A DNA stretch of 64,000 bases, from NCBI GenBank assembly GCA_031390425.1, contig JANMTL010000297.1, positions 1,055-65,054 of the forward strand, written 5' to 3'. The translations under genes were made by a program, and so were the position numbers. Shown piece after piece: positions 5,341-41,600 of this stretch. Numbering within the stretch: the first letter of the stretch is position 1; each line of letters starts with the position of its first letter. The notes beneath the pieces were generated by a model, which worked only from the letters and a program-made list of their open reading frames with translations, was not told the DNA's origin and searched no databases. This DNA comes from Rhizobacter sp. Its GTDB lineage: Bacteria; Pseudomonadota; Gammaproteobacteria; Burkholderiales; Burkholderiaceae_C.

Positions 5341-5346
5341 AACACT

Positions 5347-18340: not shown

Positions 18341-18341
18341 G

Positions 18342-22390: not shown

Positions 22391-22426
22391 TGCCTCGACT
22401 TGCTGAATTTCACCAAGGATTTCTCC

Positions 22427-22867: not shown

Positions 22868-22895
22868 GCGCTGCAAGCGATTGCCAGAGTCCGTT

Positions 22896-23345: not shown

Positions 23346-23743
23346 ACGGCCGCATGCAGCGCGGTTTCTCTTTGCTCGAACTGCTGGTAGCGTTTTCGAT
23401 TCTGGCGCTGTCGCTCGGCGTGCTTTACCAGGCCAGCGGCGGCAATGTGCGCGACCTGCAGCAGAGCGAGCAGCACCAGCGCGCCGCCGTGTTGGCCGAA
23501 TCGCTGCTCAGCCTGCGAGACACCGTGCCGTCGGTGGGCTGGGAACAATCCGGCCAGTCCGCTAGCTATGGATGGCGCATCCGCAGCAGCCCGTACCCGA
23601 CTCAGGTCTCCAGTCTCAGTGCGCCGAAATTGCACGAGGTGCAGATCACGATCGACTGGAACAGCGGATCAACGCCTCACCAGTTCGAAGTGGTGACCTT
23701 GCTGCCCGAGCGACAACCGATCGAGCCGAACGGGCCGCCATGA
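23342..23743 (+). CDS. gspI: minor pseudopilin GspI
   Basis: ATGA overlap with gspH. Leader MNGRMQRG|FSLLELLVAFSILAL. 133 aa. Confidence 0.65.
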   Translation: MNGRMQRGFSLLELLVAFSILALSLGVLYQASGGNVRDLQQSEQHQRAAVLAESLLSLRDTVPSVGWEQSGQSASYGWRIRSSPYPTQVSSLSAPKLHEVQITIDWNSGSTPHQFEVVTLLPERQPIEPNGPP

Positions 23744-24420
23744 TGGGGCGCGTGAGACTCGCGTCAAGCAGATCGTGCGCCCGCGGATTCACGCTGGTGG
23801 AAATCCTGGTCGTGATTTCGCTGCTGTCGGTGGTGATGCTCGCATTGGGTACGGCGTTTCGAACCTTCGCACAGACCGAAGTCCGTCTGGATCGCCGCCT
23901 GGAGCTGACGGACGAGTTTCGGATTGCCACAGGTTTCATCAGAACCACCCTCAGCCGAATATCCATCCGCAAACCTGAGCCGGCTTCCGCGGCGGCCGAC
24001 CGCAAAGTACTGTTTAGCGCGGACGCCCGGTCGATCGCCTGGGTTGGGGTGATGCCCGCACGGTATGGCGCCGGGGGTTTGTATTATTTCAGGCTCGCTG
24101 TTGAAAATATCGACAATGACAATACGCTGGTGATCCGATTCAAGCCCTGTAATGATTCGGCGGCATTCCCGAACTGGGCCGAGGTGGAATTCAGAACCTT
24201 GATTTCGAAAATCACTTCTTTCGAAGTTCGATATCAGGACAGCCGCCTGTCGTCGGGCTTGTGGTCAGCGAACTGGAGTCGAACCGACCGTCCTCCAGAC
24301 CGTTTGCAGATTCTCGTCCAGACCCGCGGAGTCGAATGGCCCGAGATCGTGATACCCACCCGCGTGCTTCCCGGGGCCGGTGATCGATCGAGTGCGTTTG
24401 TAATCGGAGGAGGACGATGA
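23740..24420 (+). CDS. gspJ: minor pseudopilin GspJ
   Basis: ATGA overlap with gspI. Leader ...SCARG|FTLVEILVVISLLSV. 226 aa. Confidence 0.65.
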   Translation: MMGRVRLASSRSCARGFTLVEILVVISLLSVVMLALGTAFRTFAQTEVRLDRRLELTDEFRIATGFIRTTLSRISIRKPEPASAAADRKVLFSADARSIAWVGVMPARYGAGGLYYFRLAVENIDNDNTLVIRFKPCNDSAAFPNWAEVEFRTLISKITSFEVRYQDSRLSSGLWSANWSRTDRPPDRLQILVQTRGVEWPEIVIPTRVLPGAGDRSSAFVIGGGR

Positions 24421-25283
24421 GCCGGCTTCCTACAAACACCCCGCTTCACCGAGGCTTCGCTCTGGTGGCGGTGCTCTGGATGGTCGCTGCCTTGAGCATC
24501 ATGGTCGTCGGCATGTTCTACGGGGTGCGTGGAGAAACGCGCCGGGTGTCCCTGTCGCGGCAAAGCGTCGTTCTGGGGGCTCTCGGAACGGCGGCCATTC
24601 ACGTGGTTCTGCAAGAAATGCTGGCTTCGCCGGAACCGATCACGCGCCTTTCCTACAAAGAGGTTGCTTATCAAGGCCGACTGATCCGGGTTGAAATACT
24701 CCCTCTCAACGGGTTGATCGATATCAACAATGCGTCCGAAGCATTGCTCATGAAACTGATTTCTGTTCAAGGTGGCGTCGACTCCGATCAGGCGTTGAAG
24801 CTGGCTCGAAAGACCATTGAAATACGCTCTACCAAAGATCCGTCAGGACAAGTACGAGGATTTGAATCGGTCGAAGACTGGCTCAAGGTTCCGGGTATCG
24901 ACTACACGCTGTACGCTAGAATGAATGGGTTGGTCAGCGTTGATTTGTTGGGTGTCGGGTCGGGTCGCGTCAACGCCCTCGCCGCACCCCGAGAGGTGTT
25001 GACCCTGTTGACTGGCGGCCAGGCGGAACAAGCCTTCCGAATCGCTTCTGATCGAGACGCCGGCCGCATCGGCATCGACACCACCATGCTGAATGCCAAC
25101 GACGTCGAGACGGCCTCCACCAACCGGTATCGCATCTCCGCCCGGGTGCCCGCATCGACCGACACGCAACTCTGGACGACTCAAACCGTCGACATCGCCC
25201 CGATCAAGCGCGACGGCCTGCCCTGGCGCGTCTTCAACGTTGAGCGCCATTTCGAACCCGCACGCCTCGATCGCCTGAACTGA
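24417..25283 (+). CDS. gspK: minor pseudopilin GspK
   Basis: ATGA overlap with gspJ. Leader HRG|FALVAVLWMVAAL without Glu+5, as in GspK. 288 aa with the ING/helix-hairpin-helix-like middle domain. Confidence 0.7.
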   Translation: MSRLPTNTPLHRGFALVAVLWMVAALSIMVVGMFYGVRGETRRVSLSRQSVVLGALGTAAIHVVLQEMLASPEPITRLSYKEVAYQGRLIRVEILPLNGLIDINNASEALLMKLISVQGGVDSDQALKLARKTIEIRSTKDPSGQVRGFESVEDWLKVPGIDYTLYARMNGLVSVDLLGVGSGRVNALAAPREVLTLLTGGQAEQAFRIASDRDAGRIGIDTTMLNANDVETASTNRYRISARVPASTDTQLWTTQTVDIAPIKRDGLPWRVFNVERHFEPARLDRLN

Positions 25284-25295
25284 CCCCACACCACC

Positions 25296-26426
25296 ATGTC
25301 CGCGACGCTGCCCCTGCCTGATTCGCCGCGATCAGAAGCTCAAAGCCTGTGGGCGCGGCTCATCAGCATGATCGGCCGGCGCTATCGCGAGCCGATGCTG
25401 GACGGTTTGACGCCCGACCTGCCGGTGCGTGTGCTGCTCGCCGACGGCGAGGACGCGATGTGGCGCCGGGATGCACCGCTGCAGCCCGCGCCGCCACTGT
25501 TTGCCGCCAACCCGAGCCTGGGCCTCACGGCCATCGAATACCCCGAAGATCGACTGCTGAGGCGTCAGTTCACGCTTCCGGACATGTCCTCTGCCGAGGT
25601 CACGCAAGTCGCCGCGCTCGACGCAGTCACGTCGAGCCCCTTCCGATCGGACGACCTCGTGTGGGGCCATCGCTGCGTCCCGCTGACGCCGGGGAAACTG
25701 CAAATCGACATCGTGCTGGCCTCGCGAAAGCAGGTTCAGCAACACCTGGATCAGTTGGACGGGCGACTGGCGGGCCAGAAGCATCCCGAGGTGTGGGCCG
25801 AAGTGTGGGCATTTGCAGGCGGCTCGACACCTGTAGTCATCCAGGGCTTCGGCGAAGGTCGGAGGGCTCGCCAGCAGGCCTATCAACGCTGGCTGCTGTG
25901 CGGCCTGCTTTTCCTGGCCCTTGGACTGTTGATGGGCATCGCGCTCACCCCCACAGCCCAGTTGAGGATGCGAGCGATCGAGGCCATCGACGCGTTCGAA
26001 TCCCTTCGTCTGAGAACCGCTGCACTGGTGCTGAAACGAGAATCGCTGTCGAAAGCCGCCGGCCAGGTCACGGCCATGGATGAAGTCCTGTCGGATCGCG
26101 TGCGCGCGCTCGAGATCGTGGGACTGCTGACGCGTGCACTGCCTGACGATTCATCCTTGCTCACATTGCAGATCCAAGGCTCGACGGTCAGGCTCACCGG
26201 CCAGACCTCCAACACCGCCGATCTGATGCAAAAGCTGAGCGCTTACCCAGGCCTGCGTGACGTCAAAGCACCCTCTGCCGCGACCCGTCCTTTGGGAGCG
26301 AACAAGGAGAGCTTCTCGATCGAACTCGAACTGACCCCAGAGGGGCTTCGGGATGCTGGATCGAACTGGGCCGCATCGCTTGGTAGCGGTGCAGTCTTGC
26401 CGCAGCAGAAAGCGTCGTCGCCATGA
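25296..26426 (+). CDS. gspL: GspL-like bitopic assembly protein (C-terminal PilN-like domain)
   Basis: 376 aa. Cytoplasmic N-domain, single TM (WLLCGLLFLALGLLMGIAL), and a periplasmic ferredoxin-like end (VRLTGQTSNTADLMQKLSAYPGLRDV). Position is between gspK and gspM. Confidence 0.6.
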   Translation: MSATLPLPDSPRSEAQSLWARLISMIGRRYREPMLDGLTPDLPVRVLLADGEDAMWRRDAPLQPAPPLFAANPSLGLTAIEYPEDRLLRRQFTLPDMSSAEVTQVAALDAVTSSPFRSDDLVWGHRCVPLTPGKLQIDIVLASRKQVQQHLDQLDGRLAGQKHPEVWAEVWAFAGGSTPVVIQGFGEGRRARQQAYQRWLLCGLLFLALGLLMGIALTPTAQLRMRAIEAIDAFESLRLRTAALVLKRESLSKAAGQVTAMDEVLSDRVRALEIVGLLTRALPDDSSLLTLQIQGSTVRLTGQTSNTADLMQKLSAYPGLRDVKAPSAATRPLGANKESFSIELELTPEGLRDAGSNWAASLGSGAVLPQQKASSP

Positions 26427-26977
26427 AGGGCGCCTTTCGTGCGGAACGCATTCCGCTGATCCTCCCGACGATGTTGCTGTTCATGGTGTTGTTTGCTGTC
26501 GGCTTTTATTACCTCAAGGGCAAACACGACTGGGCCACCGACCGCTTGCAGGATGTCGATCAACGCCATGCACGCTTGGCCGGTCTCGAATCCAGTCGCG
26601 CTGAGCTCGACAAGGCCGAATCGACGGCGCGTTCGTCGCTGGCCGTTGGCGTCTACCCCGCGAGCCAGGATGTGAGTCAGGCCGGCAACGACGCGCAGCG
26701 ACGCGTCCGGGATACCTTCACGAAAGCGGGACTTCAGGTGATGAGCAGCCAGGTGCTTGCCGCAAAGATCGACCGGGCGTTCGACCGCATACCGATGGCG
26801 GTTCGCCTTGAAGGCGAGTTGGTGGCATTGCAAGGCGCGTTGACGGTCATTCCAGAACTGTCACCCGCGGTCATCATCGACGGCGTGACGGTGCAAACCA
26901 TCGGCGCCGTCAAGGCCGATGCACCTCAACGTTTGGCGATCCAGTTCAGCCTCTCCGTGTTGCGGGCACGTCCATGA
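26423..26977 (+). CDS. gspM: GspM-like protein
   Basis: 184 aa with an N-terminal TM (LILPTMLLFMVLFAVGFYYL). 4-nt overlap with the upstream gene. Positional equivalent of GspM/XpsM. Confidence 0.6.
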   Translation: MKGAFRAERIPLILPTMLLFMVLFAVGFYYLKGKHDWATDRLQDVDQRHARLAGLESSRAELDKAESTARSSLAVGVYPASQDVSQAGNDAQRRVRDTFTKAGLQVMSSQVLAAKIDRAFDRIPMAVRLEGELVALQGALTVIPELSPAVIIDGVTVQTIGAVKADAPQRLAIQFSLSVLRARP

Positions 26978-27636
26978 GGCGCTACACCTCCCACGCGTTG
27001 ATCGTGTTAAGCCTGATGCTGGTCGGAGTTCTTGCGTGGCTCTGGGTCGACCCGGACGGACAACTGCGTGACGTGAGGTGGACGCCACCAACGGCCATCA
27101 AACCGGAGTTTTTGACGGTGCCACGCGCATTGGCCAAGCGCCAGTCGGCCGACGTGACGCTGGCACTGGAAATATTGGAACGGCCGTTGTTTTCGCCCAG
27201 CCGGCGACCGCCTCCCCCTGTCGTTGTGGCCCCGGTTGCGGCCGAGCCCGCCCCCGATCCGTTGGGTAATGTCTTGATACAGGGCATTTACTCGGGCACC
27301 GAGATGGGAGGCATCATCGCCAATGTCGGTGGCGTGTCGAAGCGCATTTCCATCAATGAGAAGATTGGTGACTGGACCTTGAAAGCCATCGACGAACGCG
27401 ATGTGAAATTCGTGCGTAACGATGAGAGTCGCGTCATTCAGTTGCTGCGTGCACGCCCGGTGCAACCCGCAGTGGCGGGAACCGCCGCCCCGAATCGTTC
27501 GACATCGCAGCCCGCGTCCAACGTATCGCAATCTCAGCTCTCCGTTGTCCAGAAGATGGAGGACGAAGCCCGCGAACTTCTGCGCCGTCGCAACGAGTTG
27601 CGAGCCCGGGCCGGAAGGCCCCCGATCGCCCAATAA
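26974..27636 (+). CDS. GspC/XpsN-like bitopic protein
   Basis: 220 aa. N-terminal TM, Pro-rich linker (SRRPPPPVVVAPVAAEPAPDP), then a small beta domain (LIQGIYSGTEMGGIIANVGGVSKRISINEKIGDWTLKAI) resembling the HR/PilP-like secretin-contact domain. Sits where xpsN sits in Xanthomonas. Confidence 0.5.
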   Translation: MRRYTSHALIVLSLMLVGVLAWLWVDPDGQLRDVRWTPPTAIKPEFLTVPRALAKRQSADVTLALEILERPLFSPSRRPPPPVVVAPVAAEPAPDPLGNVLIQGIYSGTEMGGIIANVGGVSKRISINEKIGDWTLKAIDERDVKFVRNDESRVIQLLRARPVQPAVAGTAAPNRSTSQPASNVSQSQLSVVQKMEDEARELLRRRNELRARAGRPPIAQ

Positions 27637-27647
27637 CCCACGCCAAC

Positions 27648-29930
27648 ATGCTCATTCAACGTCACGTCTTCGCGGTCATCGCCTTGGTGGTTTGCCAGAT
27701 TTCCTGCGCCACCCGAGGGGCAGAGACCGGAGGATTGTCCGCAAAAGACCGGTTGATGGCACAAGAGGCTGCAGCACCCACGTCGCCGACCGAAGCTGCT
27801 CCGGCCGCACCGCTCGTGCGGACGCTTGACGGCGCTCCGCCAGCAGCAGCGTTCGACGACTCGCCTGTTAGCAAGTCCGTCGCCGTTCGCGGCACCGATC
27901 GGGTAATCGCGCCCCCGGCGGCGACGCCTGGCTTGGAAGGCCCTGAAAGCGCATTCAAGTTCGAGGAAACGCCGATCGCCGATGTGGCGCATCTGATCCT
28001 TGGCCAGATACTCAAAGTCGACTACGTGCTGCACAAGCCACTCACCGGCACCGTGACGCTGTCAACCAAAGCAAGCGTGTCTGCCGACCAGGCCGTGGCC
28101 CTCCTTGAAGGCGCACTGCAGGCCAACGGGTTGCTGATGGCGCGGGACTCCCGAGGCGTCTACCACGTCGGTCGGGCAGAGGCTCTCAAAGGCATCGTTT
28201 CAACGCCCCGGCAGGCCGGCGGAGGCGGCCCTTTACCGCCAGGCTACGGCACCGTGATCGTGCCGCTTGAAAACATCGGCGCAGCAGAAATGGCGACGAT
28301 CCTGCGCCCGATGATTGCGCCCGAAGCGCTGGTGCGGGTCGACACGTTGCGCAATCTGCTGGTGCTGGTCGGCACCCGAAATCAGGTCGAAGGTTGGCTT
28401 GAAATGGTGTCGACCTTCGACATCGACTTGCTGAAGGGCATGTCGATCGGTGTCTTTCCGCTGAAGTACGCCTCCATTCGAGACGTCGAATCAACGCTGC
28501 GCATGATCACTCCCGGGTCCGCCACGCCACCAGCGGCCAGCGGGAACGCCCAGAGCCCACTAACGACACCTGGCACGTCGCCCACGGCATTGATCGACAC
28601 GCCGACACTGCTGGGTGGCGTGCGCCTGATCCCGATTGAAAGAATCAACAGCATCATCGTCGTCACCCCGAAAGCCGCCCGCCTCGAAGACATGCGTCGC
28701 TGGATCGACCGCCTGGATCAACCGACCAACAGTGCCGAATCGCAGCTTTTCGTGTACCCCGTTCAGAACGGCTCGGCGCGGCATTTGGCCAAAGTGTTGA
28801 ACGGGATTTTCGGGACGGAGTCCAGCCCGACTGATTCCAACGAATCGAGCTCCGGCGTAGCGCCCGGACTGTCATCCGTCACCGCGGGTCAAGGCGCTCC
28901 ATTGGGTGCCGGCTTTGCGTATTCCGGCGGCGGCGGTACAGGAGGCGGTGGCGGGATCAATGCGGGCACGTCGCGTCAGGCGGGTTCTGCGGCGTCGAAT
29001 GCTCAGTCGGTGACGGCTGTCGCCCTGGGACTCGGCACGCGCCTGATTGCGGACAACCTCAATAACGCAATATTGGTGTATGGAAGCCGCGGCGACTACA
29101 AGAAAATCGAAGACACGCTGCGCAAACTCGACGTGCCGCCGACCCAGGTCCTGATCGAGGCGAGCATCATCGAAGTCACCCTCAACGATGACCTGCAATA
29201 CGGCGTGCAGTGGTTGTTCACGGACAGTTCGTCTGGCAGCACCAATGGCACGGGCGTCCTCAGCACACGCGGCGGCGGCATCCTCGGCGGCCCGTTGGCC
29301 GGGTTTTCTTACACGCTGCGCAACTCTCTCGGCAATGTGCGGGCCGTGTTGAATGCGCTCGCGGAGAAGTCGCTGGTCAAGGTCATTTCGAGCCCCTCTT
29401 TGATGGTTCTCGACAACCACACGGCGGCCATTGCGGTTGGCAATCAACAACCGATCCGCTCTGGCGAGACCGTCTCGACGGGCGGCTTCGCAACGACTAC
29501 GATCCAGTACAAAGATACGGGCGTGTCACTCGCAGTCACGCCGTCGGTGAACGCCGGCAACATCGTCACGATGCAAATCAATCAAGGCGTCACGGACGTA
29601 GGGCAGGTCGATAGCGCGACCGGCCAGCGAACCTTTCTGCAGCGACGCATCGACAGCAAAGTGGCCATTCGCTCCGGCGAGACCCTGGTGCTGGGCGGAT
29701 TGATCCGCGACAACACGACCAACGGCAAGAGCGGGATACCGCTGCTGCAAGACATCCCCGTACTCGGCACACTGTTCGGGAGCAACAACGCGAACAAGGT
29801 TCGAACGGAGTTGCTAGTGGTCATCACGCCACGCGTAGTGCGGTCAGATCAGGACGTCAGGGAGGTCAGTGGGGAAATGCGTCAACGCATGAAGAGCTTC
29901 TCAGCCATCGAGGAGTTGCGTGATCGCTAA
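27648..29930 (+). CDS. gspD: type II secretion system secretin GspD
   Basis: 760 aa. N0 domain starting FKFEETPIADVAHLILGQILKVDY. Secretin core VISSPSLMVLDNHTAAIAVGNQQP...GIPLLQDIPVLGTLFG. The ~100 aa before N0 form a Pro/Ala-rich extension. Confidence 0.9.
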   Translation: MLIQRHVFAVIALVVCQISCATRGAETGGLSAKDRLMAQEAAAPTSPTEAAPAAPLVRTLDGAPPAAAFDDSPVSKSVAVRGTDRVIAPPAATPGLEGPESAFKFEETPIADVAHLILGQILKVDYVLHKPLTGTVTLSTKASVSADQAVALLEGALQANGLLMARDSRGVYHVGRAEALKGIVSTPRQAGGGGPLPPGYGTVIVPLENIGAAEMATILRPMIAPEALVRVDTLRNLLVLVGTRNQVEGWLEMVSTFDIDLLKGMSIGVFPLKYASIRDVESTLRMITPGSATPPAASGNAQSPLTTPGTSPTALIDTPTLLGGVRLIPIERINSIIVVTPKAARLEDMRRWIDRLDQPTNSAESQLFVYPVQNGSARHLAKVLNGIFGTESSPTDSNESSSGVAPGLSSVTAGQGAPLGAGFAYSGGGGTGGGGGINAGTSRQAGSAASNAQSVTAVALGLGTRLIADNLNNAILVYGSRGDYKKIEDTLRKLDVPPTQVLIEASIIEVTLNDDLQYGVQWLFTDSSSGSTNGTGVLSTRGGGILGGPLAGFSYTLRNSLGNVRAVLNALAEKSLVKVISSPSLMVLDNHTAAIAVGNQQPIRSGETVSTGGFATTTIQYKDTGVSLAVTPSVNAGNIVTMQINQGVTDVGQVDSATGQRTFLQRRIDSKVAIRSGETLVLGGLIRDNTTNGKSGIPLLQDIPVLGTLFGSNNANKVRTELLVVITPRVVRSDQDVREVSGEMRQRMKSFSAIEELRDR

Positions 29931-30004: not shown

Positions 30005-30442
30005 ATGATGCTCAAGGTTCAATGTGTGCGACCGAAATCCAGAGGCGCAGTGTTCTATTCCTTAATTTCCGCAGTCGTTGTGTTGGTCGGAGGGTGCGCC
30101 AGTTTCACGTCGTCCACGCCGGAAGACACCGTTCGAGAACGCGCGAAACAGCGCTGGGTGGCTTTGATGAGCGGCGACACTCAAAAAGCTTACGACCTCA
30201 CCACACCGTCGTTCCGCTCGATCTCCAGCTTTAATTCGTACAAAGCCAAGTTCGGTAACAGAGTCAACTTGCTGGCCGCAGAAGTGGTTTCAGTCACCTG
30301 CGAAACAGAAAAATGCACGGCTGTCGTGCGTGTCGACGCCAGGCCATTGCTCGGTGGTGGATTCGGCAATACACTTACGACCCATGTTGACGAGACTTGG
30401 CTCTTAGAAGATGGCCATTGGTGGTTTTTTCAGAAGCTTTGA
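30005..30442 (+). CDS. small lipoprotein of unknown function (pilotin candidate)
   Basis: 145 aa. Signal peptide with lipobox LVGGC|ASF. No recognisable catalytic motifs. Located 75 nt after gspD. Confidence 0.55.
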   Translation: MMLKVQCVRPKSRGAVFYSLISAVVVLVGGCASFTSSTPEDTVRERAKQRWVALMSGDTQKAYDLTTPSFRSISSFNSYKAKFGNRVNLLAAEVVSVTCETEKCTAVVRVDARPLLGGGFGNTLTTHVDETWLLEDGHWWFFQKL

Positions 30443-30623
30443 CGATGGACCCGCATGGGAGGCCTGCATATCGAAATAAACTGACACGTGTTGCCATTGA
30501 GCAACGTTTCGCATTTGCCAGGCACTCTACCAAACAACCCGTTTTAAGCATGTGCTAGCATTTCCCAGCGCTATCAACGTCGTCAGTAGCTGCGCTGATC
30601 AACTTTTTAAATCTGGAGTTTTC

Positions 30624-32366
30624 ATGAGAAAAAATATTCTCGCTTTGAGTATCACCGCCATCGGTGGGATGGTCATGTCTGGTGCGGCATTCGCTGGCGT
30701 GCAGATTGATGCCAATGGATCAATAGTTCCGGCTTTGCCAACTGCTTCTACTGCTGTCAATTTGGCTATTAGCGCGGATGGCGCAGGGCACATTTTGTTG
30801 GTTCCTTATTTTACCGTTCAAAACGGCAATGCAACGTTGATCAACTTGGTCAATACCGATAAAACTTTCGGTAAAGCTGTGAAGGTTCGCTTCCGCGGCG
30901 CTGCGAATTCCGACGATGTTTTTGACTTCCAAGTTTTCTTGTCGCCTGGTGACGTCTGGTCTGCCAACGTGAGCAAGGGTGCTGACGGTCGTGCAGCATT
31001 GACTACCACGGACAAGTCATGCACTTTGCCCAAGAATGTAAACACGTCCTTTGTGACCGACCGATTGCCGTCGACCTATACCGCTGCTCAAAAAGCTCTT
31101 CAAACGAATGAAGGCTATGTTGAGATTTTTAACATGGGCGACATTCCTAAATCGCGTTACAGCGCGCAGACTGGTCTTGCGCCGTCGGCTTCGTCGTCAC
31201 CAGTCGGCACTGGCGATAATCCGCTGTACCAGGCCATTAAGCACGTCGGCGGTGTAGCACCATGTAACAGCACCGATTCGGTAGTTGCAGCCCAGGCAGC
31301 CGCTACGTTGGCCAGAACCGCAGTTGACACGACTGTTCATGACAACACTACCACTCCATCCAACGCCGCCTTCCAAGGTTTGGCTTTGCCATCCACCGGC
31401 TTGTTTGCAAACTGGACGATCGTCAATGTTCCAGGAACATTGACCTGGACTGGTACAGCAACGGCGATCGTTGCAACGACCAGCGCTGGTACTGCTGGCG
31501 TCGGCAATTTGGTTATGCACCCACAAACGAATGCGCTGATTGGCGCAGCCGCGGCCACAGCTCGTACCAGTGACCCACTCTTGGCCGGTGGCTTTAGAAC
31601 ATTGTCTTCTGCCGGGGTCGGCAGTGATGCAATTGCTGCTCCAATCCAGGCGGCGTTGTTCGATTTTCCTGATTTGTCGACACCTTACATCAGGGTTGCA
31701 CCCGCTGGTGCTGCTGTCACGCCGACAGGGCAGGCTTTGCAACTCACGCAATCACTTGCAGCGACTTCATTCATCAATGAGTATTTGACTGAACCCACGA
31801 TCAATGCCAAGACGGATTGGGTGTTTTCAGCGCCAACGCGCCGGTACAGTGTCGGTTTGAACTATGCAATCGTTTCTCCGGATACGACGTTTACCCGGGT
31901 CTTTTCTAGCTTGGGCGGTGCAGCACAGACGTACCTTTTCAGCGGCAACACCAGCGTGGATACCGGCTTGGGTCAGATCTGTGTATTGAATATCAACCCG
32001 ACCTACCAGGATAGGGAAGAGAATGTTCCTGTCGACGTCACGGATTTCGTGATTTCCCCGGGCGCGCTTGGCGCACCATTGACGTTTTGTGGTGAGGTCA
32101 GTGTGTTGAGTTTCAACAATACGGCCGGAACGTCGGTTCTTGGTGCGTTGATTGCACGTAAGGATATTGATCTGGCGTTTAAGAATGGCTGGGCAACCAT
32201 CGCCACCCCGGGTAACGGAGGTAACGGCTTGGCAGTGATCGGCGCTTCATTCATGAGCGCCTTCAACGGCAATGCCACCCCGGGTGTCTCAGGTAATTAT
32301 GGTTTGTCGTTCCAGCATCGGTACGAGCGTGTGGCTCCTGTAGCGGCACCAACACCAGCACCTTGA
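30624..32366 (+). CDS. 580-aa secreted Ala/Thr/Gly/Ser/Asn-rich protein of unknown family (candidate T2SS cargo / surface-layer-like protein)
   Basis: GGAG RBS 7 nt before ATG 30624. Sec signal MRKNILALSITAIGGMVMSGAAFA|GVQ. Few charged residues and few Cys. Followed by a strong terminator. AT-richer than the surrounding genes. Confidence 0.7.
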   Translation: MRKNILALSITAIGGMVMSGAAFAGVQIDANGSIVPALPTASTAVNLAISADGAGHILLVPYFTVQNGNATLINLVNTDKTFGKAVKVRFRGAANSDDVFDFQVFLSPGDVWSANVSKGADGRAALTTTDKSCTLPKNVNTSFVTDRLPSTYTAAQKALQTNEGYVEIFNMGDIPKSRYSAQTGLAPSASSSPVGTGDNPLYQAIKHVGGVAPCNSTDSVVAAQAAATLARTAVDTTVHDNTTTPSNAAFQGLALPSTGLFANWTIVNVPGTLTWTGTATAIVATTSAGTAGVGNLVMHPQTNALIGAAAATARTSDPLLAGGFRTLSSAGVGSDAIAAPIQAALFDFPDLSTPYIRVAPAGAAVTPTGQALQLTQSLAATSFINEYLTEPTINAKTDWVFSAPTRRYSVGLNYAIVSPDTTFTRVFSSLGGAAQTYLFSGNTSVDTGLGQICVLNINPTYQDREENVPVDVTDFVISPGALGAPLTFCGEVSVLSFNNTAGTSVLGALIARKDIDLAFKNGWATIATPGNGGNGLAVIGASFMSAFNGNATPGVSGNYGLSFQHRYERVAPVAAPTPAP

Positions 32367-32398: not shown

Positions 32399-32426
32399 AA
32401 AGGGCGGGGTTTCCCCGCCCTTTTTC
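32399..32426 (+). terminator. rho-independent terminator after the secreted-protein gene
   Basis: Stem gggcgggg/ccccgccc (32402-32409 and 32413-32420) with a short loop, followed by TTTTT. Confidence 0.8.
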
Positions 32427-32494
32427 TATTGTCGGTGCCCTATTTGACTCAGTTGGGCGACTGGCTCAACCAAACAACGCAACCTATTGCTTAC

Positions 32495-33373
32495 ATGTTC
32501 AACCTATCTGTCAACTCACTCAAATCAGCGCTGCTTGTCGTCTGCATGGCGCACACGGTGGCCATGGCAGAACCGGCCGTCGTGGTCTCAGGCCCCGGTG
32601 TCAGCGTTGACAGCTCAGACTTGAGCGCCGATGCGCAACGGATTCCCGCGGAGTCCCGAAAGAAGCTGTTGAACAAGCCCGAGAATGTAGTTCAGATGGC
32701 GTCGAACTTGTACGTCCGTCGTGCGTTGGCGGCGGAAGCTGAAACTGCCGGACTGGGCAATGATCCTATAGTCGCCGCAGCAATCAGGCTGGCCAAGGAA
32801 CGCATCCTGTCGGACGCTCGGATGGCGCAACTGGATCTGAAAAACACCCCGCCCAACGACGCGTTGGATCAATTTTCGTTGGCCCGGTATCGAAGCAACA
32901 TCAATCAATATGAAACACCCGCTCAACTCAGCGCGCGACATATTCTGATCAAATCAAAAACCGCAGACGCCCGGGCAAAGGCGGAGAAACTACTTTCCGA
33001 GTTGAAAAGGGGCGCCGATTTCGAGAGTTTGGCAAAGGCAAACTCAGAAGACGCCTCGGCGTCGAAAGGCGGAGACCTGGGTTTCTTTCCACGCGGACGC
33101 ATGATCGCCCCGTTCGAAGCAGCAGTTTTTGCGCTGGCCAAACCCGGTGATCTCAGCGGGATCGTAGAAACAGAAGTCGGCTTTCATATCATCAAACTCG
33201 AGGCCAAGCAAGAAGCGACGGTCAAGCCATTTGAAGAAGTGCGTGATCAATTGCGCAAAGAGACCTTGGCCAATCTATTGAGTGACGCCCGCGGAAGAGA
33301 ATCGCAGCGCGTGCTCAACGGCGCCAAGTTTGAGGCAGCGGCAATCGAAGCGTTTGCAAACAGCCAGCAATGA
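32495..33373 (+). CDS. secreted parvulin-type peptidyl-prolyl cis-trans isomerase (PpiC/EpsD-like)
   Basis: Signal peptide ...VVCMAHTVAMA|EP. SurA-like N-terminal chaperone region. Parvulin core SARHILIKS...GGDLGFFPRGRMIAPFEAAVFAL...GFHIIKLE. Confidence 0.8.
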   Translation: MFNLSVNSLKSALLVVCMAHTVAMAEPAVVVSGPGVSVDSSDLSADAQRIPAESRKKLLNKPENVVQMASNLYVRRALAAEAETAGLGNDPIVAAAIRLAKERILSDARMAQLDLKNTPPNDALDQFSLARYRSNINQYETPAQLSARHILIKSKTADARAKAEKLLSELKRGADFESLAKANSEDASASKGGDLGFFPRGRMIAPFEAAVFALAKPGDLSGIVETEVGFHIIKLEAKQEATVKPFEEVRDQLRKETLANLLSDARGRESQRVLNGAKFEAAAIEAFANSQQ

Positions 33374-33446: not shown

Positions 33447-34241
33447 ATGCTTTGGACTGAAATCAGGGCTTTGTGGCAAGCGCGCGGGTTGGTTTGGGTA
33501 CTTACCCGGCGGGAACTTTCCGCGCGCAACGCGGGGTCGATCGCAGGCACACTGTGGTTGTACGTGCCACCGTTGATGACGATCGCTGCCTATTACCTGG
33601 TGTTCGAAATCGTCTTTTCGATGCGCCTCGGTCAACATGCTCCGGTCGAATCGGTCGGGGCGTACTTGGTGGTCGGCGCCTTGCCGTGGATGGCGTTTTG
33701 CGACGCCATCAACCGCAGCATGAGCAGCCTGATTGACGCGGGCGGCTTGCTCCAGAAAAATCCGCTTCCTCCCGCTTTGTTTCCCGCACGATCGGTGCTC
33801 GCGAGTGCGGTCGTGTTCGGGCCCTTGATTGGTTTGGTCACCATGGCGTACTCACCGATGCATCGGTGGACACCGGCCCTGGTCGCACTGTTGCCGCTCG
33901 CGCTTTTGCAGATGGCACTGTGCTGGTCGATGGGTTACTTGCTGGCGTTGCTGGCGGCTGCCTTGCGCGACGTGCTCGCCGTAGTCGGATTCATGCTGAC
34001 GGTGGGTATTTATCTATCGCCGGTACTCTTTCCCGTCACGATGTTTCCTCCCGACTGGCGCTGGATACTGTGGCTGAACCCCATGGCACCGTTGATCGGA
34101 GGTTATCAGTCGGTGCTGCTCACAGGACATTGGCCCGAGTTGAGCACCTGGGCGGTCACCGTCGTTTGGATCGTCCTGACCGTGTTGCTCCTGGAGGCGG
34201 TCGTCAAGCGCAGTCGCGATCAACTGGCGGATTGGCTGTGA
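33447..34241 (+). CDS. wzm: ABC-2 type polysaccharide export permease Wzm
   Basis: 264 aa with six hydrophobic helices and the ABC-2 family N-terminus (LVWVLTRRELSARNAGSIAGTLWLYVPP). Confidence 0.85.
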   Translation: MLWTEIRALWQARGLVWVLTRRELSARNAGSIAGTLWLYVPPLMTIAAYYLVFEIVFSMRLGQHAPVESVGAYLVVGALPWMAFCDAINRSMSSLIDAGGLLQKNPLPPALFPARSVLASAVVFGPLIGLVTMAYSPMHRWTPALVALLPLALLQMALCWSMGYLLALLAAALRDVLAVVGFMLTVGIYLSPVLFPVTMFPPDWRWILWLNPMAPLIGGYQSVLLTGHWPELSTWAVTVVWIVLTVLLLEAVVKRSRDQLADWL

Positions 34242-35500
34242 AGTCCACCGAAGTGCCTAATGCCGAGGCGAACGTCGTTCTGCGCGTGGCGCACGTAGGC
34301 AAGGAATACAAGCTCTACGACGCCCCGAAAGATCGATTTCTGGCTCTGCTGACGGGGCGCTCCAACCATCGCAGCCACTGGGCGCTGCGCGATGTCGACT
34401 TCACGGTGCATCGCGGGCAGTGCATGGGTGTAATTGGCGACAACGGCGCCGGGAAAAGCTCGCTGTTGAAGCTGATCGTCGGCACCTTGCAGCCGACCGA
34501 AGGCCGCGTGACGCGAGTCGGCCGCGTGACTGCCATCCTTGAGCTGGGCGCCGGATTCCATCCCGAATTCAGCGGCCGCGAAAACCTTTACTTCGGCGGT
34601 AGCCTGATCGGCATTTCGCACGCTGAGATGGCCCTGCTCGAACGCGAGATTCTCGATTTTTCGGAGCTGGGCGAGGCCATCGACCGGCCGGTAAAAACAT
34701 ACTCGTCGGGCATGGCGGTGCGGCTGGCGTTTGCGTTGGTCACGGCCGTGGAGCCCGACTTGCTGATCATCGACGAAGCACTCGCCGTAGGCGACCAGAA
34801 CTTCCAGAAGAAGTGCGTGCAACGCATCGACACGTTTCGTCGAAATGGCTGCACGATCCTGTTTTGTTCGCACAGCCTGTACCACATCAGACACCTGTGC
34901 GATGTGGCGCTGTGGCTGGACAAAGGCAGGGTGAAAGCATTCGGCGATACCGAAGCGGTGCTGCCGTCCTACGAGGCTCATGTGCGTGCGGGCGATCCGA
35001 CCACTGCAGAGACGGTCGATGCGTCCGACACCGGATTCAGCCGCTTGTCGACTCCGGCCGACAATCCTCCCGCGCCCGCCAAGCAGGCGGCCGAAGGCTC
35101 GGTCGCGCAACTCGTGTCCGTCGAGGTGGCGCACCTCGGCGCCGGTGAACCCCCGCTGCTCCAATCGCGCGATCTGGTGGTGACCGTCACCGCGCAGATC
35201 GAATCCGACGAGCAGCCGAGCATCGCCGTCATGCTGCAGCAGTCGCACGGTGTCGGCATCACCGCCGTGGCGACACACACCGAGGGCATCGCACCCGCAT
35301 GCCTGGGATCCGGGCGCTGGCAATCGACGCTGACTTTCCCGGAATTGCCACTGCACTCGGGCGACTACGTGGTCAGTGCCTACCTGTTCGACACGCCGGG
35401 TTTGGTTGTCTACGACGAGTGGCTGCGTTGCGTGGAATTCAAGCTGGTCTCGCCGAGTCGCCTGCCCGGTTTGGTGCGCCTGCCGCATCGTTGGTCCTGA
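34238..35500 (+). CDS. wzt: polysaccharide export ATP-binding protein Wzt with C-terminal glycan-binding-type extension
   Basis: GTG start overlapping the wzm stop (GTGA). Walker A GDNGAGKSS, signature YSSGMAVRLAFA, Walker B LLIIDEALAVGD. A ~170-aa beta-rich C-terminal domain follows. The ORF-track start 33866 is rejected. Confidence 0.85.
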   Translation: MKSTEVPNAEANVVLRVAHVGKEYKLYDAPKDRFLALLTGRSNHRSHWALRDVDFTVHRGQCMGVIGDNGAGKSSLLKLIVGTLQPTEGRVTRVGRVTAILELGAGFHPEFSGRENLYFGGSLIGISHAEMALLEREILDFSELGEAIDRPVKTYSSGMAVRLAFALVTAVEPDLLIIDEALAVGDQNFQKKCVQRIDTFRRNGCTILFCSHSLYHIRHLCDVALWLDKGRVKAFGDTEAVLPSYEAHVRAGDPTTAETVDASDTGFSRLSTPADNPPAPAKQAAEGSVAQLVSVEVAHLGAGEPPLLQSRDLVVTVTAQIESDEQPSIAVMLQQSHGVGITAVATHTEGIAPACLGSGRWQSTLTFPELPLHSGDYVVSAYLFDTPGLVVYDEWLRCVEFKLVSPSRLPGLVRLPHRWS

Positions 35501-36403: not shown

Positions 36404-38644
36404 TCACCTGGCAAGTGCGCCCTCCGCACCGATCGGCACCACGTCGAAGGCGGCCGGCGCCAGACCTTGAAGGTGACGTTTCCACATCGACAAGTAAGCG
36501 CTTTCGAGGTGCCGCCTGAACCGCGCGGTGTCGAACAGCGGATGCGTGTGACATTGCGAACCGAGGCGGCGTCGCAGATCGTGCAAACGCGCCGGATCGG
36601 TCGCCAGTTCGAGTGCTGCGGCCTCGTAGCCTGCGAGGCTGTCGGTGATCAGTTCGGGCAGCCCGGCGGCCCGCAGCAGGCTGGCCGCCACGCGCCCGGC
36701 GAAGGTCGATCCCGCACAGGTCAGCAGCGGCAATCCCGCCCACAGTGCGTCGCTGGCAGTGGTGTGCGCGTTGCACGGCAGGGTATCGAGAAACAGGTCG
36801 GCCTGACGATGCCGGGCCAGATGCTCGGGCAGCGCCACGCGCAGGGCGAAGACCAGCCGCTCCGGCGCCACACCACGTGCCCGGGCTTCTCGACGCAGAT
36901 TGCGTGACGCCGCCGAGTTGTCTTCCAGCAACCACAACACGCTGCCGTCCACCGCCTGCAGCAGACGCATCCAGATGTCGAATATCTCGGGCGCGATCTT
37001 GTAATTGTTATTGAAGCAGCAGAAGACGAACCCCACGTCGGGCAGCCCGCAATCAGCGCGGCTGGGCGTGTGCTCGGCCACCACGCGACTGCGCGCGTTG
37101 ACCTGGTACGAGTCGGGCAGGCGCACCACCTTTTCACTGTAGGCGCCATCGTGGCCTTCTGGAATCACGGTGGCATCGGCGATCAGGTAATCGATGGCTT
37201 CGTGGCCCAGGGTGCCGGGGAAGCCGAGGTAGCTGACCTGCAGCGGCGCCGCGCGATGGGCAAAGATGCCGGGACGGCTGTCGCGCGTGAAGCCCTTCAG
37301 GTCGACGGCGATGTCGATTTCGAGCTCGCGCATCGCCAGTGCCACCTGGCGGTCGTTCAGCGTACGAGCATCGATGAGGTGTTCGAACGATCGCTTCAAG
37401 CGCTCGCGCATCTCGCTGGGCCGATCGGGGCCAAGCGAGATGGCCCAGATCTCGAACTGCTCACGGTCGTGCGATTCGAACAGGTCGATCATCAGGTGGG
37501 CCGTTGCGTGGTCGTGGAAATCGGCCGAAACGTAGGCGAGCCGGATGCGATCGTGACCAGGACGAGGCAGCGCAAACTCACCCGGCAGCACGTCGAGAGG
37601 ATGCTGGTCGGCCGCGAAGACCCGTGCGCAGGCCCACTGTCTCGCCGCGTCGCCGCACAGCGCCACGGCCGAAAACGGCGCCGCTGCCTTGCCTCCCCGA
37701 TCGATGGCGCTCTCGAGCTGCTGGATCGATAGCGCATGCTCTACCCAGTCACAAATATTCAAACGGCTGAACAACAGATTGCCGAGCGCATAGGGATGGT
37801 CCGGCTTCAGGTCGAGCACACGCGCGCACGCTTGCGCTGCCTGGTCATGCCGGCCGAGCCGCCCGAACACGGCGGCCCGGTTGGCCATGACGGCGACGGC
37901 GTGGGGCTCGAGGGCCAATGCCCGGTCGTAGCACGCGAGCGCTTCATCGGGACGATGCAGGTCGTCGAGCACGCTGCCCAGGTCGCTGAGCGCCTCCGCA
38001 TCGTCGGGCGCCAACATCACCGCGCGCGCATGGCTGGACCTCGCTTCGTCGAGTCGTTGCAACGCTTCGAGCGCACGGCCGCGTGCTTTCAGCGCTTCGA
38101 CGTAATCCGGCTTCAGCACCAGGGCTCGATCGTGACTGGCCACAGCCTCGTCGATGCGCCCCAGTTCGCGCAGCACCAGCCCGCGGTTGTGGCAGGCCTG
38201 CGGGTTGGTCGACTTCAGCGCCAACGACTGGTCGTAGCAAGCGAGTGCGTCGGCATGACGCTGCAAATCGCGCAGCACGTTGCCTTTGTTGTTGAACGCG
38301 TCCGCATGGTCGGGTTGAAGCCGCAGCGCGCTGTCGTAGCGGACCAGCGCCTCGTCGAAACGCTTCAACTCGCGCAAGGCGATGCCGCAATTGTTGTACA
38401 GGGGCGCAAAGCTGTCGTTGACCGCGATGGCGCGTTCGAGCAGCGCCAGCCCGGGCTCCCAGGCCTTGCGTCGCAGATGACTCAGGCCGAGCAGGTGCAG
38501 GCCGTCGAAATGCTGCGGATCGCGCGTCAGCAGGTCGTTCAGCACTCGCTCGGCCTGCGCGCTGTTCCCCTGCTGCATCAATGTCAGCGCGCGCTGGAAC
38601 AAGCCCTGAATCGGCTCCGGCGCGTTGCGTCGCTGCTTTGCCAT
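36404..38644 (-). CDS. TPR-repeat protein fused to SPINDLY/OGT-type (GT41-like) glycosyltransferase
   Basis: 746 aa. N-terminal TPR array. C-terminal motifs RLAYVSADFHDHATAHLM, VSYLGFPGTLG, FCCFNNNYKIAPEIFDIW and CNAHTTASDALWAGLPLLTCAGSTFAGRVAASLL, typical of bacterial SPY/OGT-like enzymes. Confidence 0.8.
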   Translation of the reverse strand: MAKQRRNAPEPIQGLFQRALTLMQQGNSAQAERVLNDLLTRDPQHFDGLHLLGLSHLRRKAWEPGLALLERAIAVNDSFAPLYNNCGIALRELKRFDEALVRYDSALRLQPDHADAFNNKGNVLRDLQRHADALACYDQSLALKSTNPQACHNRGLVLRELGRIDEAVASHDRALVLKPDYVEALKARGRALEALQRLDEARSSHARAVMLAPDDAEALSDLGSVLDDLHRPDEALACYDRALALEPHAVAVMANRAAVFGRLGRHDQAAQACARVLDLKPDHPYALGNLLFSRLNICDWVEHALSIQQLESAIDRGGKAAAPFSAVALCGDAARQWACARVFAADQHPLDVLPGEFALPRPGHDRIRLAYVSADFHDHATAHLMIDLFESHDREQFEIWAISLGPDRPSEMRERLKRSFEHLIDARTLNDRQVALAMRELEIDIAVDLKGFTRDSRPGIFAHRAAPLQVSYLGFPGTLGHEAIDYLIADATVIPEGHDGAYSEKVVRLPDSYQVNARSRVVAEHTPSRADCGLPDVGFVFCCFNNNYKIAPEIFDIWMRLLQAVDGSVLWLLEDNSAASRNLRREARARGVAPERLVFALRVALPEHLARHRQADLFLDTLPCNAHTTASDALWAGLPLLTCAGSTFAGRVAASLLRAAGLPELITDSLAGYEAAALELATDPARLHDLRRRLGSQCHTHPLFDTARFRRHLESAYLSMWKRHLQGLAPAAFDVVPIGAEGALAR

Positions 38645-38671
38645 GCGTGTCAGCCCGACCGACGTCGACCG

Positions 38672-41600
38672 TCAGGCGTTAAGCCAGCTCTTAACCCGCG
38701 TCTGCCAGCGCAGCGGAATCGCCCGGGCGAGGCGGCTGAAAACCGGCGCGGATCGCAATCGCAGCACCGTCATGAACAAGGTCTGCTTGATGCCGTGGCG
38801 CAGCGCGTCGACCCCGTGCGAGCGATTCAACCGGTGCGCGGCGAGGAATTCGGGGCTCAGGGCCACCGCATGATCCGGTGTACGGACGCCGGCCAGATAG
38901 TCCCGTTCATACGACCACGAACGAATTCGCGAATCGTGCGTCACGGCCTGCAAACGATGCGTCGGCGCCGGCCCATCGGCGGTGACGAAATTACGCTCTC
39001 GCAGTTCGAGAAAGAACGCCAGCCCATCCGCTGCGGCGGCGTTCCAGGGCCGAATCCAGCTCCACGCGCGGCCGCTGAGGCGCTCTGCAAACGCGCCGAG
39101 GTCGGTCGCGACGACGGGCAGGCCACGCTCCAGGCAGGCGCTCAGGGTGTAGCTGTATGTCTCGGGCCACTGTGCGGGGAACCAGGCCAGATCAGGCTGG
39201 AGCTGATCGAGCAAGCGGGCAAGATCGGCTTCGTCGTATGGGCCGTGCACCGTGAGCCTGGCGCCCGGCGCGCTGCGCAGGCTGCGGTAGGCGAACCCGA
39301 GCAGGTGGAAGTCGATCGGCGCGGCCTGCTGTGCGGCCAGCGTGGCGACGTCTTCGAGCACGTCGGCGCCCTTGATCGGGCTGAGCGCGCCGATGACCAC
39401 GACCTTCAACGGCGCCGCTGCACCGAGCGCGCGGGGCGATGGCATCGGGTGCGGCAGGCGATCGAGCAGATCGTCGTGCGGCGCGTAGCGCACATCGGCC
39501 GTCGGCGCATAACGCAGCAGGCGCTGCGCCGCATCGCGGCTGGGCACCAGCACATGGCGGGCCCCGGCGATCAGGTTGCCGTGGCTGGCGCGCCACTGCT
39601 CTATCGACACACCACCCGGTGCGGGCGACCGGACCAGGCAGGTGCGGCACTGCTCGACGCCTTGTTCGCCGCAATAGGCGTTGTCGGTGCCGGTCAGGCT
39701 GATCTGCGGGCAGAACGCGTGGTAGTCGTGCGCGGTGAAGTCGTGGCGCACCCCCAGGTGCGCAGGCAGCGCGAGCACGTCGGCGCTGTGGCCGAGCAGG
39801 TGGTGGAAATGAATGTGGCCCACGCCGATCGCGCGCAGCGCTTCGAGCAGTGCCGGGAACTCCGACGGCAGCTGAAACGACAGTTGAAAGCCTTCGTTCG
39901 CGCCGTGCAGGCTGAGTGCGACCGACGGTCCGCGCGCCGGTTTGAGCACGAAGAAAACGGCATTGCTGCGCCAGCGGTCGGCCAGTTCGTGCACATGCCG
40001 CAGCGTGCCGCCTTCGCGGTCGTGAATCACCAGCAGCACCACCGGTTTGACGGCAGCCGCCACGCGCGCCAGGTCGATCGTGTGGCGGGCCTGCCGGGCA
40101 GGGTCGTGCGCAATGAAGCGGTGCACCTGCGGCTCGTAGTCGGGGTGCAGCCGACGCAGCGTTTCCATGGCGGCGATTTCACGCGGGCGCTTCAGCGCGC
40201 CGAAGCTGACGCCGCCCGCATGCAGCACGAAGGTGTCGAGTGCGTGCAGGTTGCGCCAGCCTGCCTGCTGGGCGCGCTGGCAAAAGTCGTTTTCTTCGCC
40301 GTAGCCCTTGCCGAATTGCTCGACATCGAACAGCCCCACCTGCGTCAGGCAGTCGCGCCGGATGTACATGCAAAAGCCGACGCCGGTGGGCACATCGACC
40401 ACTTGGCCGGACAGCGTGCGCGCGAACAGCGCGTCCAGCGACGCGGTGTCGTGGCCCTCGGGCAGGGTGTTGCCTTCGCAGGTGCGCGGGTAGCTGCAAA
40501 TGGTCGCGTTGTTCGAGAACGGTGTGACCGTGCCGACGCGGGTGTCCGAATACGCGGCGCGCTTGAGGCGATCGAGCCAGTCGTTGGCGACCTCGGTGTC
40601 GCTGTTGAGCAGCACCACGTCGTGCGCATCGCTGAGTGCCATGCCGCGGTTCACCGTGCCGACGAAGCCGAGGTTGCTGTCGTTCTCGACCAACAGGATG
40701 CGGCTGTCGCGGGCGGCCAGCTCGCGCAGCCAGGTCGTCACATCAGGTTCCGGGCTGGCGTCGTTGATGACGATCAGGCGGAACGCGGTTGCGTTGCTGG
40801 CGGCCAGCGCCGATTGCAGGCAGCGCTGCGTGTCACCCAGGCCGCGGTAGACCGGCACGATCACATCGACCGGCCACGCGGTGGGCGTGATGGCGGTCGG
40901 CGTCGGTGCGGCGGGCATCGCCGCACCGGCAGCGGGATGCAGCAGGCTGGGCCGACCGAGCAGCCGATCGATGCGGCCTTTCAGGCGCGACAGCGGCCGC
41001 GTCAGGCGGAACGATTTCGACTGCTCGATGCGCTGCACGTAGCCGTACAGGCCATCGAACTCGCCGCGCAAGGTCTGATGCGCCTGCTGCAGCTCCCGCT
41101 TTTCGTCGAGCAGCAGGTTCTTTTGGGCAAGCAGTTCAACACGCTGGTCGAGCAGCTTGAGTTCGCTGTCGGCCAACTGGGTGGCCAACGCCGACAGCCG
41201 CTGTTGCTGTGCCTGCCGCCGACATTCGCTGCCTTCTAGCGCAGCGGATAGCGCATCTCGCTGCAGGGCCAGGGCGTGTCCGCAGTCGCCGCTGGCGGCG
41301 AGTTCGTGCTCCAGTCGATCGCGCGCTTCGGACTGTTGAATCAGCGCCGGCTCGATGCGGGACAGCCGATCCTGCAGGGGTTGGACCACATCCTTCAGAG
41401 CCAGGTAGTCGGCCGACATCGGCCAGCCGAGTTCGACTTCGAGCGAGCCGCCGCGCCGTTGCTCCCACGCCGCCAGCGCGGCCGGCCCGATCGGCAATTC
41501 GATCCACGGGTCGTCGCCGTACAGCAGCGCCAGTGCGGGGGCGCCGTCGGGCCACGGCGCGCGCAGCAGCACCTGCTGAGTCGATGCGGTCGCGGCCCAA

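Follow-up and report, generated by a model that had tools for sequence, protein, structure and literature searches.

In Delftia sp. Cs1-4, NpdA was identified as a surface-layer (S-layer) and nanopod protein by immunogold labelling, proteomics, and gene disruption, and deletion of npdA resulted in loss of the S-layer (PMC3110197). In Paracidovorax citrulli AAC00-1, deletion, proteomics, and cryo-electron microscopy (cryo-EM) established NpdA as the S-layer protein, and cryo-EM of 16 further npdA-carrying cultures showed an S-layer resembling that of NpdA in 15 of them (PMC10765051). NpdA forms an oligomer of more than 150 kDa that resists sodium dodecyl sulfate and LiCl, and its reassembly depends on lipopolysaccharide (LPS) (PMC10765051, PMC3110197). 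LPS was required for reassembly of the D. acidovorans S-layer (Engelhardt, as cited in PMC3110197). A gsp cluster, encoding a type II secretion system (T2SS), has been reported as conserved near npdA (PMC10765051). The present analysis concerns a 64,000-nucleotide stretch of DNA, here called the window, from contig JANMTL010000297.1 of a Rhizobacter sp. assembly (GCA_031390425.1). Its gene at 30624-32366 very probably encodes an S-layer protein of the NpdA family. This family is already described, and the window gene is a further member from another uncultured Burkholderiales lineage. The gene and its expression signals are as follows.

30443-30623, + strand: conserved non-coding leader, 181 nt (comparative alignment, covariance model)
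30624-32366, + strand: probable npdA-family S-layer protein gene, 580 aa (open reading frame and translation, homology)
32399-32430, + strand: intrinsic terminator of npdA, 11-bp stem with 8 G-C pairs, 3-nt loop, and T run (hairpin/T-run scan)

Homology to validated NpdA and protein features

An initial annotation, made from composition alone, had described the product as an orphan secreted protein and guessed that it was a major S-layer subunit. The orphan status was not upheld. At least 2,789 homologues (clusters at 90% identity) were found at E <= 1e-3, and a genome scan located 270 places in species-representative genomes that encode a relative. The best 120 of these at least 2,789 homologues are mostly near full-length, with 44-85% identity, and several homologues carry the name 'cell surface protein'. 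The guess of an S-layer subunit gained support from homology to validated NpdA and from the gsp neighborhood. The homology search that had been proposed as a check returned a full-length match to this experimentally proven S-layer protein and no soluble enzyme family. The window protein aligns over its full length (residues 1-571) with NpdA of P. citrulli AAC00-1 (WP_011797163.1) at 46% identity and E 1e-129. Its identity is 47% to the orthologue of P. citrulli DSM 17060 (L034) and 44% to NpdA of Delftia tsuruhatensis (WP_275825027.1; E 3e-123). The DSM 17060 gene agrees with the published values, namely a 1,602 bp gene, a 25-aa signal peptide, and a mature mass of 52.4 kDa (PMC10765051). Eleven of the loci examined belong to organisms in the orthologue list or neighborhood figures of the same paper, for example Rubrivivax sp. 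SCN 71-131 (L075).

The NpdA proteins of Delftia acidovorans Cs1-4 and P. citrulli AAC00-1 (Shetty et al. 2011, PMC3110197; Gajbhiye et al. 2023, PMC10765051) and the window protein have in common a 24-25-aa Sec signal, the lack of known domains, and a size of about 52-61 kDa. They also share the motifs KVRFRGAxNSDD, D(L/F)PD(L/M)STPY, and TDWVFSxPTRRY and four conserved Cys. At the DNA level, the gsp cluster lies directly upstream in all of them, and the same leader motif precedes the ATG. In contrast, the window protein has longer variable loops (181-200, 221-240, 321-340) and a Pro/Ala-rich C-terminal tail. Unlike the Delftia and P. citrulli copies, its gene has a G+C content at third codon positions (GC3) far below that of its own genome and an unusual preference for TTG. 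Most of the sampled orthologues are from Comamonadaceae, whereas the window lineage lies near metagenome-assembled genomes (MAGs) labelled Rhizobacter sp. and Burkholderiaceae.

The reading frame is intact, as the initial annotation had it, and runs from the ATG at 30624 to the TGA at 32364-32366. Residues 1-24 (30624-30695) form the signal peptide MRKNILALSITAIGGMVMSGAAFA (MRKN...AFA), cut before GV. This assignment comes from alignment with P. citrulli NpdA, whose 25-aa signal peptide, predicted by SignalP6 (PMC10765051), it matches column for column. The mature protein has 556 aa, a mass of 56.9 kDa, and an isoelectric point of 5.2. Ala, Thr, Gly, Ser, Asn, and Val make up 57.6% of it, Asp, Glu, Lys, and Arg 11.3%, and it contains 4 Cys. 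The clean Sec signal and the biased, weakly charged, Cys-poor composition noted at the outset were thus reproduced. Cys 133, 214, 453, and 489 are invariant in 60 sequences of the family. Conservation is blockwise, with cores at 41-180, 261-320, and 341-560 and variable, indel-rich loops at 21-40, 181-200, 221-240, 321-340, and 421-440, in addition to the C-terminal tail. Ten N-x-S/T sequons are present, and glycosylation is possible in view of a nearby TPR-GT41 gene.

No Pfam family matched the window protein at E <= 0.1. Pfam and NCBIfam gave no significant match to curated S-layer domains (SLH and other S-layer families), Pfam gave none to RTX/HemolysinCabind, and the PDB gave none by sequence or by family profile. 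An NCBIfam match of the signal peptide to the PhrK pheromone (E 0.0045, far below the cut-off) was spurious. An AlphaFold (AF2) model built with 60 homologues was confident (pLDDT, the predicted local distance difference test, 88.6; pTM, the predicted TM-score, 0.90) and mostly beta. Foldseek comparison of the model with 350,542 PDB chains found nothing significant (best E 0.024, query TM-scores no higher than 0.14). Galectins, glutamic peptidases, neprosin, and jelly-roll capsid proteins came up with E 0.02-0.1, and these resemblances were rejected as non-significant. The initial annotation recognized no enzyme motif and had named in advance a soluble-enzyme fold as evidence against a surface protein. 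No enzyme family or fold was found in Pfam, NCBIfam, PDB profiles, or Foldseek.

Four further NpdA homologues (43-46% identity) have no adjacent T2SS, peptidyl-prolyl isomerase (PPIase), or wzm gene, and their leader match is weak or absent. Three of them (L016, L022, L042) come from separate contigs of the same Comamonadaceae MAG (JAAFIW01); the fourth is L028. Paralogy, silent cassettes, or a binning artefact may account for them.

Leader, terminator, and codon usage of npdA

The initial annotation had also proposed that the gene has its own expression signals, including a GGAG ribosome-binding site, a 180-nt non-coding leader, and one of the strongest terminators of the window. The leader measures 181 nt. 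Its mean column identity is 89% in a comparison of six loci, where the NpdA proteins themselves share only 54-85% identity. GGAG lies at 30615-30618, 5 nt 5' of the ATG. The terminator hairpin (32399-32423) has a stability of -20.8 kcal/mol and ranks as the second most stable hairpin-plus-T-run across the whole window in a scan made for this analysis. Rfam matches to DapZ (39.5 bits, with gathering set at 56), sraA, and L20-leader fall on this hairpin below the gathering score and were rejected as look-alikes. A sigma-70 consensus scan of the leader gave no promoter, a result that was later superseded by comparative alignment. The alignment located an extended -10 element, TGTGCTAGCAT, at 30551-30561 with no recognizable -35. 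Therefore, of the expression signals proposed at first, the terminator is clear, whereas the promoter emerges only from comparison among loci.

The block conserved across genera reads TGTGCTAnnAT, about 5 nt, then (A/G)GCG...TTGCGCT...CAACTTTTT..GGAG..ATG. The position of the extended -10 places the transcription start near 30567-30568, so that transcripts would carry the stem CAGCGC/GCGCTG (30566-30597) at their 5' end, followed by a U-rich tract and then GGAG. The resulting leader of about 57 nt, together with its extended -10 (30551-30623 in the window), is the best conserved DNA of the npdA locus and is npdA-specific; it is also found upstream of npdA in the other loci (L003-L085). Mean pairwise identity is 63% in this leader, 47% in npdA coding DNA, and 30% in the next 100 nt upstream. 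In 1.63 Mb, the covariance model R1, built on the leader, matched exactly once at each locus, in every case directly against the npdA ATG, and nowhere else. Rfam gave no match in the leader.

The leader stem is paired in 97.5% of the alignment cells, and most of its pairs are invariant. Covariation is modest, with AU 30, GU 14, and GC 5 at the outer pair and UG 47, CG 5, and UA 2 at the inner pair; its score was reached by only 3 of 500 shuffles. A second hairpin (UGGUA/UACCA and AGUUG/CAACU registers) can be drawn in many sequences, but it does not occupy the same columns in all clades and is not claimed. Further upstream, an inverted repeat, GTTGC-N6-GCAAC, lies at 30490-30505. Its arms are invariant and its spacer varies (N6/7) in the six closest loci, and it was seen only in this close clade. 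An operator and a hairpin are both possible readings of it. Long stabilizing 5' untranslated regions are also known from other S-layer genes, which offers a lead to the function of the npdA leader.

The npdA gene was initially described as much AT-richer than its flanks, with 27 of 60 G+C in line 30781-30840 compared to 38 of 60 in line 20041-20100. The difference holds for the whole gene, whose G+C content is 53.2% against 63.9% in the window and whose GC3 stands at 0.54, compared to about 0.87 in gspE, gspF, ahpF, and the uvrA-like genes. The npdA gene fails a simple GC3-based coding test. The drop is a property of the family, since npdA GC3 is below that of the flanks in 96% of 76 loci (mean difference -0.10). 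It is caused by T-ending codons of four-fold boxes, which reach 0.30 in npdA compared to 0.11 in the flanks and are higher in npdA in 100% of the 75 loci compared. A-ending four-fold codons do not differ in these loci (0.08 in both), and C-ending codons of two-fold pyrimidine boxes are 0.79 in npdA and 0.71 in the flanks (npdA higher in 77%). A pattern of this kind is the classical translational-selection signature of highly expressed genes, a general rule that also appears in the C-over-U measure of Sharp and colleagues. Across the family, codon usage in npdA is that of a gene expressed at a very high level. Ribosomal protein genes, which the initial annotation had proposed as the reference for a codon adaptation index, are absent from the window.

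Secretion, folding, and glycan genes around npdA

The npdA gene lies in an island of approximately 10.5-43 kb that is flanked by beta-oxidation genes and ahpCF. The gsp, wzm, and wzt genes were assigned by Pfam and NCBIfam, the remaining glycan-related genes by Pfam, and the frames of the two minus-strand genes also by GC3.

14690-15718, + strand: radical SAM/SPASM protein
15782-16927, + strand: acyltransferase_3
16928-18340, + strand: 470-aa open reading frame (ORF), no Pfam family match
18222-19286, + strand: GT2 glycosyltransferase
19438-29930, + strand: Xps-type type II secretion operon, 11 genes
19438-21156, + strand: gspE
21149-22390, + strand: gspF
22400-22867, + strand: gspG
22827-23345, + strand: gspH
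about 23342-23743, + strand: gspI
23740-24420, + strand: gspJ
24417-25283, + strand: gspK
25296-26426, + strand: gspL
26423-26977, + strand: gspM
26974-27636, + strand: gspC/N-like gene
27648-29930, + strand: secretin gene gspD
30005-30442, + strand: conserved small lipoprotein, 145 aa, lipobox LVGGC, NTF2-like fold, between gspD and npdA
32429-33373, + strand: periplasmic PpiC/parvulin-type PPIase (Rotamase domains, E 3.6e-28)
33447-34241, + strand: wzm (ABC-2 exporter, O-polysaccharide type)
34238-35500, + strand: wzt with Wzt_C carbohydrate-binding domain
36404-38644, - strand: TPR-GT41 glycosyltransferase
38672-42787, - strand: 1371-aa methyltransferase-GT2-GT4 protein

The neighborhood is that published for npdA, with the gsp cluster directly upstream; the operon is complete and ends 694 nt before npdA. 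Among the evaluable genome loci, gspD and the lipoprotein gene each adjoin npdA in 64 of 69. The PPIase gene stands directly 3' of npdA in 66 of 73, and Wzm/Wzt are encoded within 4-5 kb downstream in 61 of 73. The order common to most loci is gspEFGHIJKLM(C/N)D, lipoprotein, npdA, PPIase, wzm, and wzt. The PPIase, the ABC transporter, and the lipoprotein are not mentioned in the main text of the NpdA paper (PMC10765051), and no description of them was found in the NpdA papers. Compared with the two nearest genomes (L003, L004), GspE and GspF are 94-96% identical, whereas identity is only 50-58% for the GspC/N-like protein, the lipoprotein, NpdA, and the PPIase. The four proteins have thus diverged in concert, which is what interacting partners, or a single exchangeable cassette, would be expected to show.

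The lipoprotein had no Pfam, NCBIfam, or PDB sequence match. Its AF2 model (pLDDT 79) led Foldseek to NTF2-like proteins, including 2jq5 (E 2.6e-5), the N-terminal domain of PBP2a, and 3k7c. The NTF2-like fold is not known among PulS/GspS-type pilotins, and a role as a classical T2SS pilotin is not supported by this fold. A 91-aa protein (P0124) with a 100% match over 63% of the lipoprotein is the product of the window's own record, in which the gene is therefore probably annotated with a start further downstream. The 145-aa form is supported by its lipobox, which is kept in 70 orthologues. For the PPIase, the window sequence and the gene calls in the three loci L083-L085 suggest that the true start is likely the ATG at 32495, 3' of the npdA terminator. 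Translation from this ATG gives a clean putative signal peptide, MFNLSVNSLKSALLVVCMAHTVAMA (…VAMA), cut before EP, which points to a periplasmic enzyme. The Wzt_C domain and the methyltransferase-glycosyltransferase possibly fit an ABC-dependent O-polysaccharide of the end-capped type, a combination familiar from such systems. The adjacent acyltransferase_3 and 470-aa ORFs (15782-18340) form a second low-G+C patch, with 52% G+C and GC3 of 0.64.

Other S-layer systems resemble this locus in part. The A-layer (VapA/AhsA) of Aeromonas salmonicida and A. hydrophila also has a Sec-dependent S-layer gene beside its own T2SS (Sps) and inside a wzm/wzt O-antigen cluster, as outlined in PMC4483657. In A. 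salmonicida, the same source places the sps-T2SS and vapA genes between wzm and wzt. The gene order differs from that of the window. No Pfam, NCBIfam, or PDB family links VapA/AhsA to the window protein, and the likeness is one of locus logic rather than of direct sequence comparison. Among the entries considered from the A-layer gene table of PMC4483657, neither a PPIase nor an NTF2-like lipoprotein was found. RsaA of Caulobacter crescentus is likewise a Gram-negative S-layer protein with secretion genes beside the structural gene, and it is anchored on O-antigen according to the accounts in PMC6978808 and PMC10765051, an arrangement that the window may share. RsaA is an RTX-type protein exported by type I secretion with an uncleaved C-terminal signal. 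In contrast, the window protein combines a cleaved N-terminal Sec signal and an adjacent T2SS with no RTX match in Pfam, which sets it outside the RsaA-like type. The gene of Slr4 in Pseudoalteromonas tunicata, also of the Proteobacteria, adjoins a T2SS cluster too. Slr4 is described as a separate protein family, and it is this description (PMC7821379, as cited in PMC10765051) that sets it apart from NpdA.

Additional features were observed outside the npdA neighborhood. A 2000-aa ORF at 46868-52870 (- strand), downstream of ahpCF, contains duplicated UvrA-like ABC ATPase modules (double UvrA paralogue). Long + strand ORFs in 1-10000 and 37700-43500, for example 5248-9657 (1469 aa) and 37736-41239 (1167 aa), are shadows of minus-strand genes according to GC3 and Pfam. 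Such shadows opposite real genes are usual in high-G+C DNA. The real minus-strand genes, by the same evidence, encode an ABC exporter, an enoyl-CoA hydratase, a thiolase, a FadB-like protein, and an acyl-CoA dehydrogenase. At the left island edge, a candidate 256-aa ORF with an HNH endonuclease domain (9641-10411, + strand; E 4.6e-16) shows some overlap with the end of the acyl-CoA dehydrogenase gene (7852-9816, - strand).

Proposed pathway and competing explanations

The homology, synteny, and sequence signals described above can be arranged into a pathway. The NpdA precursor would be exported by Sec, with removal of the 24-residue signal peptide. NpdA would then fold in the periplasm, where its four invariant Cys suggest two disulfides, for which C133-C214 and C453-C489 are candidate pairs. 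The periplasmic parvulin PPIase encoded in the same locus may assist this folding or serve as a holdase. The adjacent upstream Xps-type T2SS would move the folded protein across the outer membrane. The absence of a sorting tag, recorded in the initial annotation, would be explained if NpdA is a Sec-dependent T2SS substrate. At the surface, NpdA would assemble into a paracrystalline lattice held on LPS; from D. acidovorans, p4 symmetry is expected. The anchoring glycan would be made by the surrounding glycosyltransferases and exported by the downstream Wzm/Wzt. The presence of these genes is a consistent context for the resistant oligomer and the LPS-dependent reassembly of NpdA. Very high expression would be provided by the extended -10, the leader of about 57 nt with its stem-loop, U-rich tract, and strong Shine-Dalgarno sequence, and the tight terminator.

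Several points weigh against this picture. The NpdA of this uncultured bacterium is known from sequence alone, and at 46% identity lattice formation is likely rather than guaranteed. Export of NpdA by the T2SS is a presumption for the model strains too. Folded as a single sequence, the leader shows no gain in stability over shuffles (z +0.8 to -2.0), and the same holds for folding energies of the whole leader. Among the 16 additional npdA-carrying cultures, one had no visible NpdA-like S-layer (PMC10765051). This culture also fits the idea that the window protein is a T2SS-secreted NpdA homologue that forms no cell-covering lattice and instead serves as matrix that is shed, as an adhesin, or as the sheath of nanopods. 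Nanopods, which NpdA builds as well, enclose chains of outer-membrane vesicles as tubes and connect biofilm cells as bridges (PMC3110197, PMC10765051), and the related T2SS-linked Slr4 is a biofilm matrix component. However, nanopods are outgrowths of the S-layer itself in every characterized case (PMC3110197), and the accessory locus, leader, and LPS genes are intact in the window. A protein without a lattice is therefore improbable. An S-layer-like composition in what is really a soluble T2SS-secreted enzyme or binding protein is the least probable of the alternatives. T2SS substrates are usually enzymes, and the Foldseek resemblances are faintly of beta-sandwich type, but these resemblances are non-significant with low TM-scores, the domain searches found no enzyme family, and homology to proven S-layer proteins is strong.

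The codon usage of the window gene also bears on its origin and is not a clean signature of high expression, because the C-ending two-fold preference of the family is missing. Codons of the NNC type account for only about 0.5 compared to 0.8 in housekeeping genes, and TTG accounts for 73% of Leu codons. The window npdA has the T-ending enrichment of the family plus a general AT shift, in which A-ending codons are raised, and the lipoprotein and PPIase genes have the same shift. Translational selection alone was thus rejected as the cause of its low G+C, since two-fold C-ending codons are depleted, unlike in the rest of the family. These features, the raised NNT codons, and the identity of only 54% in NpdA where GspE and GspF are 94-96% identical could indicate a foreign cassette that arrived recently, is expressed poorly, or is in decay. 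Yet the ORF is intact with all family-invariant residues kept, the promoter, leader, Shine-Dalgarno sequence, and terminator are the conserved ones, and the identical protein was assembled from two independent sequencing runs. The G+C trough at npdA is present in the relatives L083, L003, and L004, which led to rejection of recent import into this genome alone. Together with its occurrence in 96% of the 76 family loci, this makes the trough an old property of the cassette in the lineage, and a cassette of recent or decaying foreign origin is very improbable. The AT shift would fit an earlier exchange from relatives of lower G+C content. Of the two causes offered initially for the AT-richness, high expression accounts for the family-wide codon signature, and foreign origin may account for the additional general shift, not in the form of recent import.

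An S-layer protein of the NpdA family, supported by the locus around it, is hence preferred for the gene at 30624-32366. The npdA leader, the accessory lipoprotein and PPIase, and the NpdA fold appear to be undescribed. It can be hypothesized, tentatively and with considerable doubt about the combination, that the leader, conserved in Burkholderiales and Rhodocyclales, is a new cis-regulatory or mRNA-stabilizing RNA element behind expression at the level of an S-layer, that the lipoprotein, presumably of the outer membrane, and the PPIase are dedicated S-layer biogenesis or anchoring factors, and that the fold has no solved counterpart. The NpdA family is large and environmentally abundant (at least 2,789 clusters at 90% identity) and is mostly annotated 'hypothetical', with no Pfam or NCBIfam model. 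The T2SS, the NTF2-like lipoprotein, the PPIase, and Wzm/Wzt form a defined set of candidates for the export and anchoring of the S-layer. The confident NpdA model, whose fold the PDB lacks, can serve to model the lattice and to study how cells resist predators such as Bdellovibrio (PMC12827227). The conserved promoter and leader could explain very high expression in high-G+C Betaproteobacteria, or could be borrowed for it.

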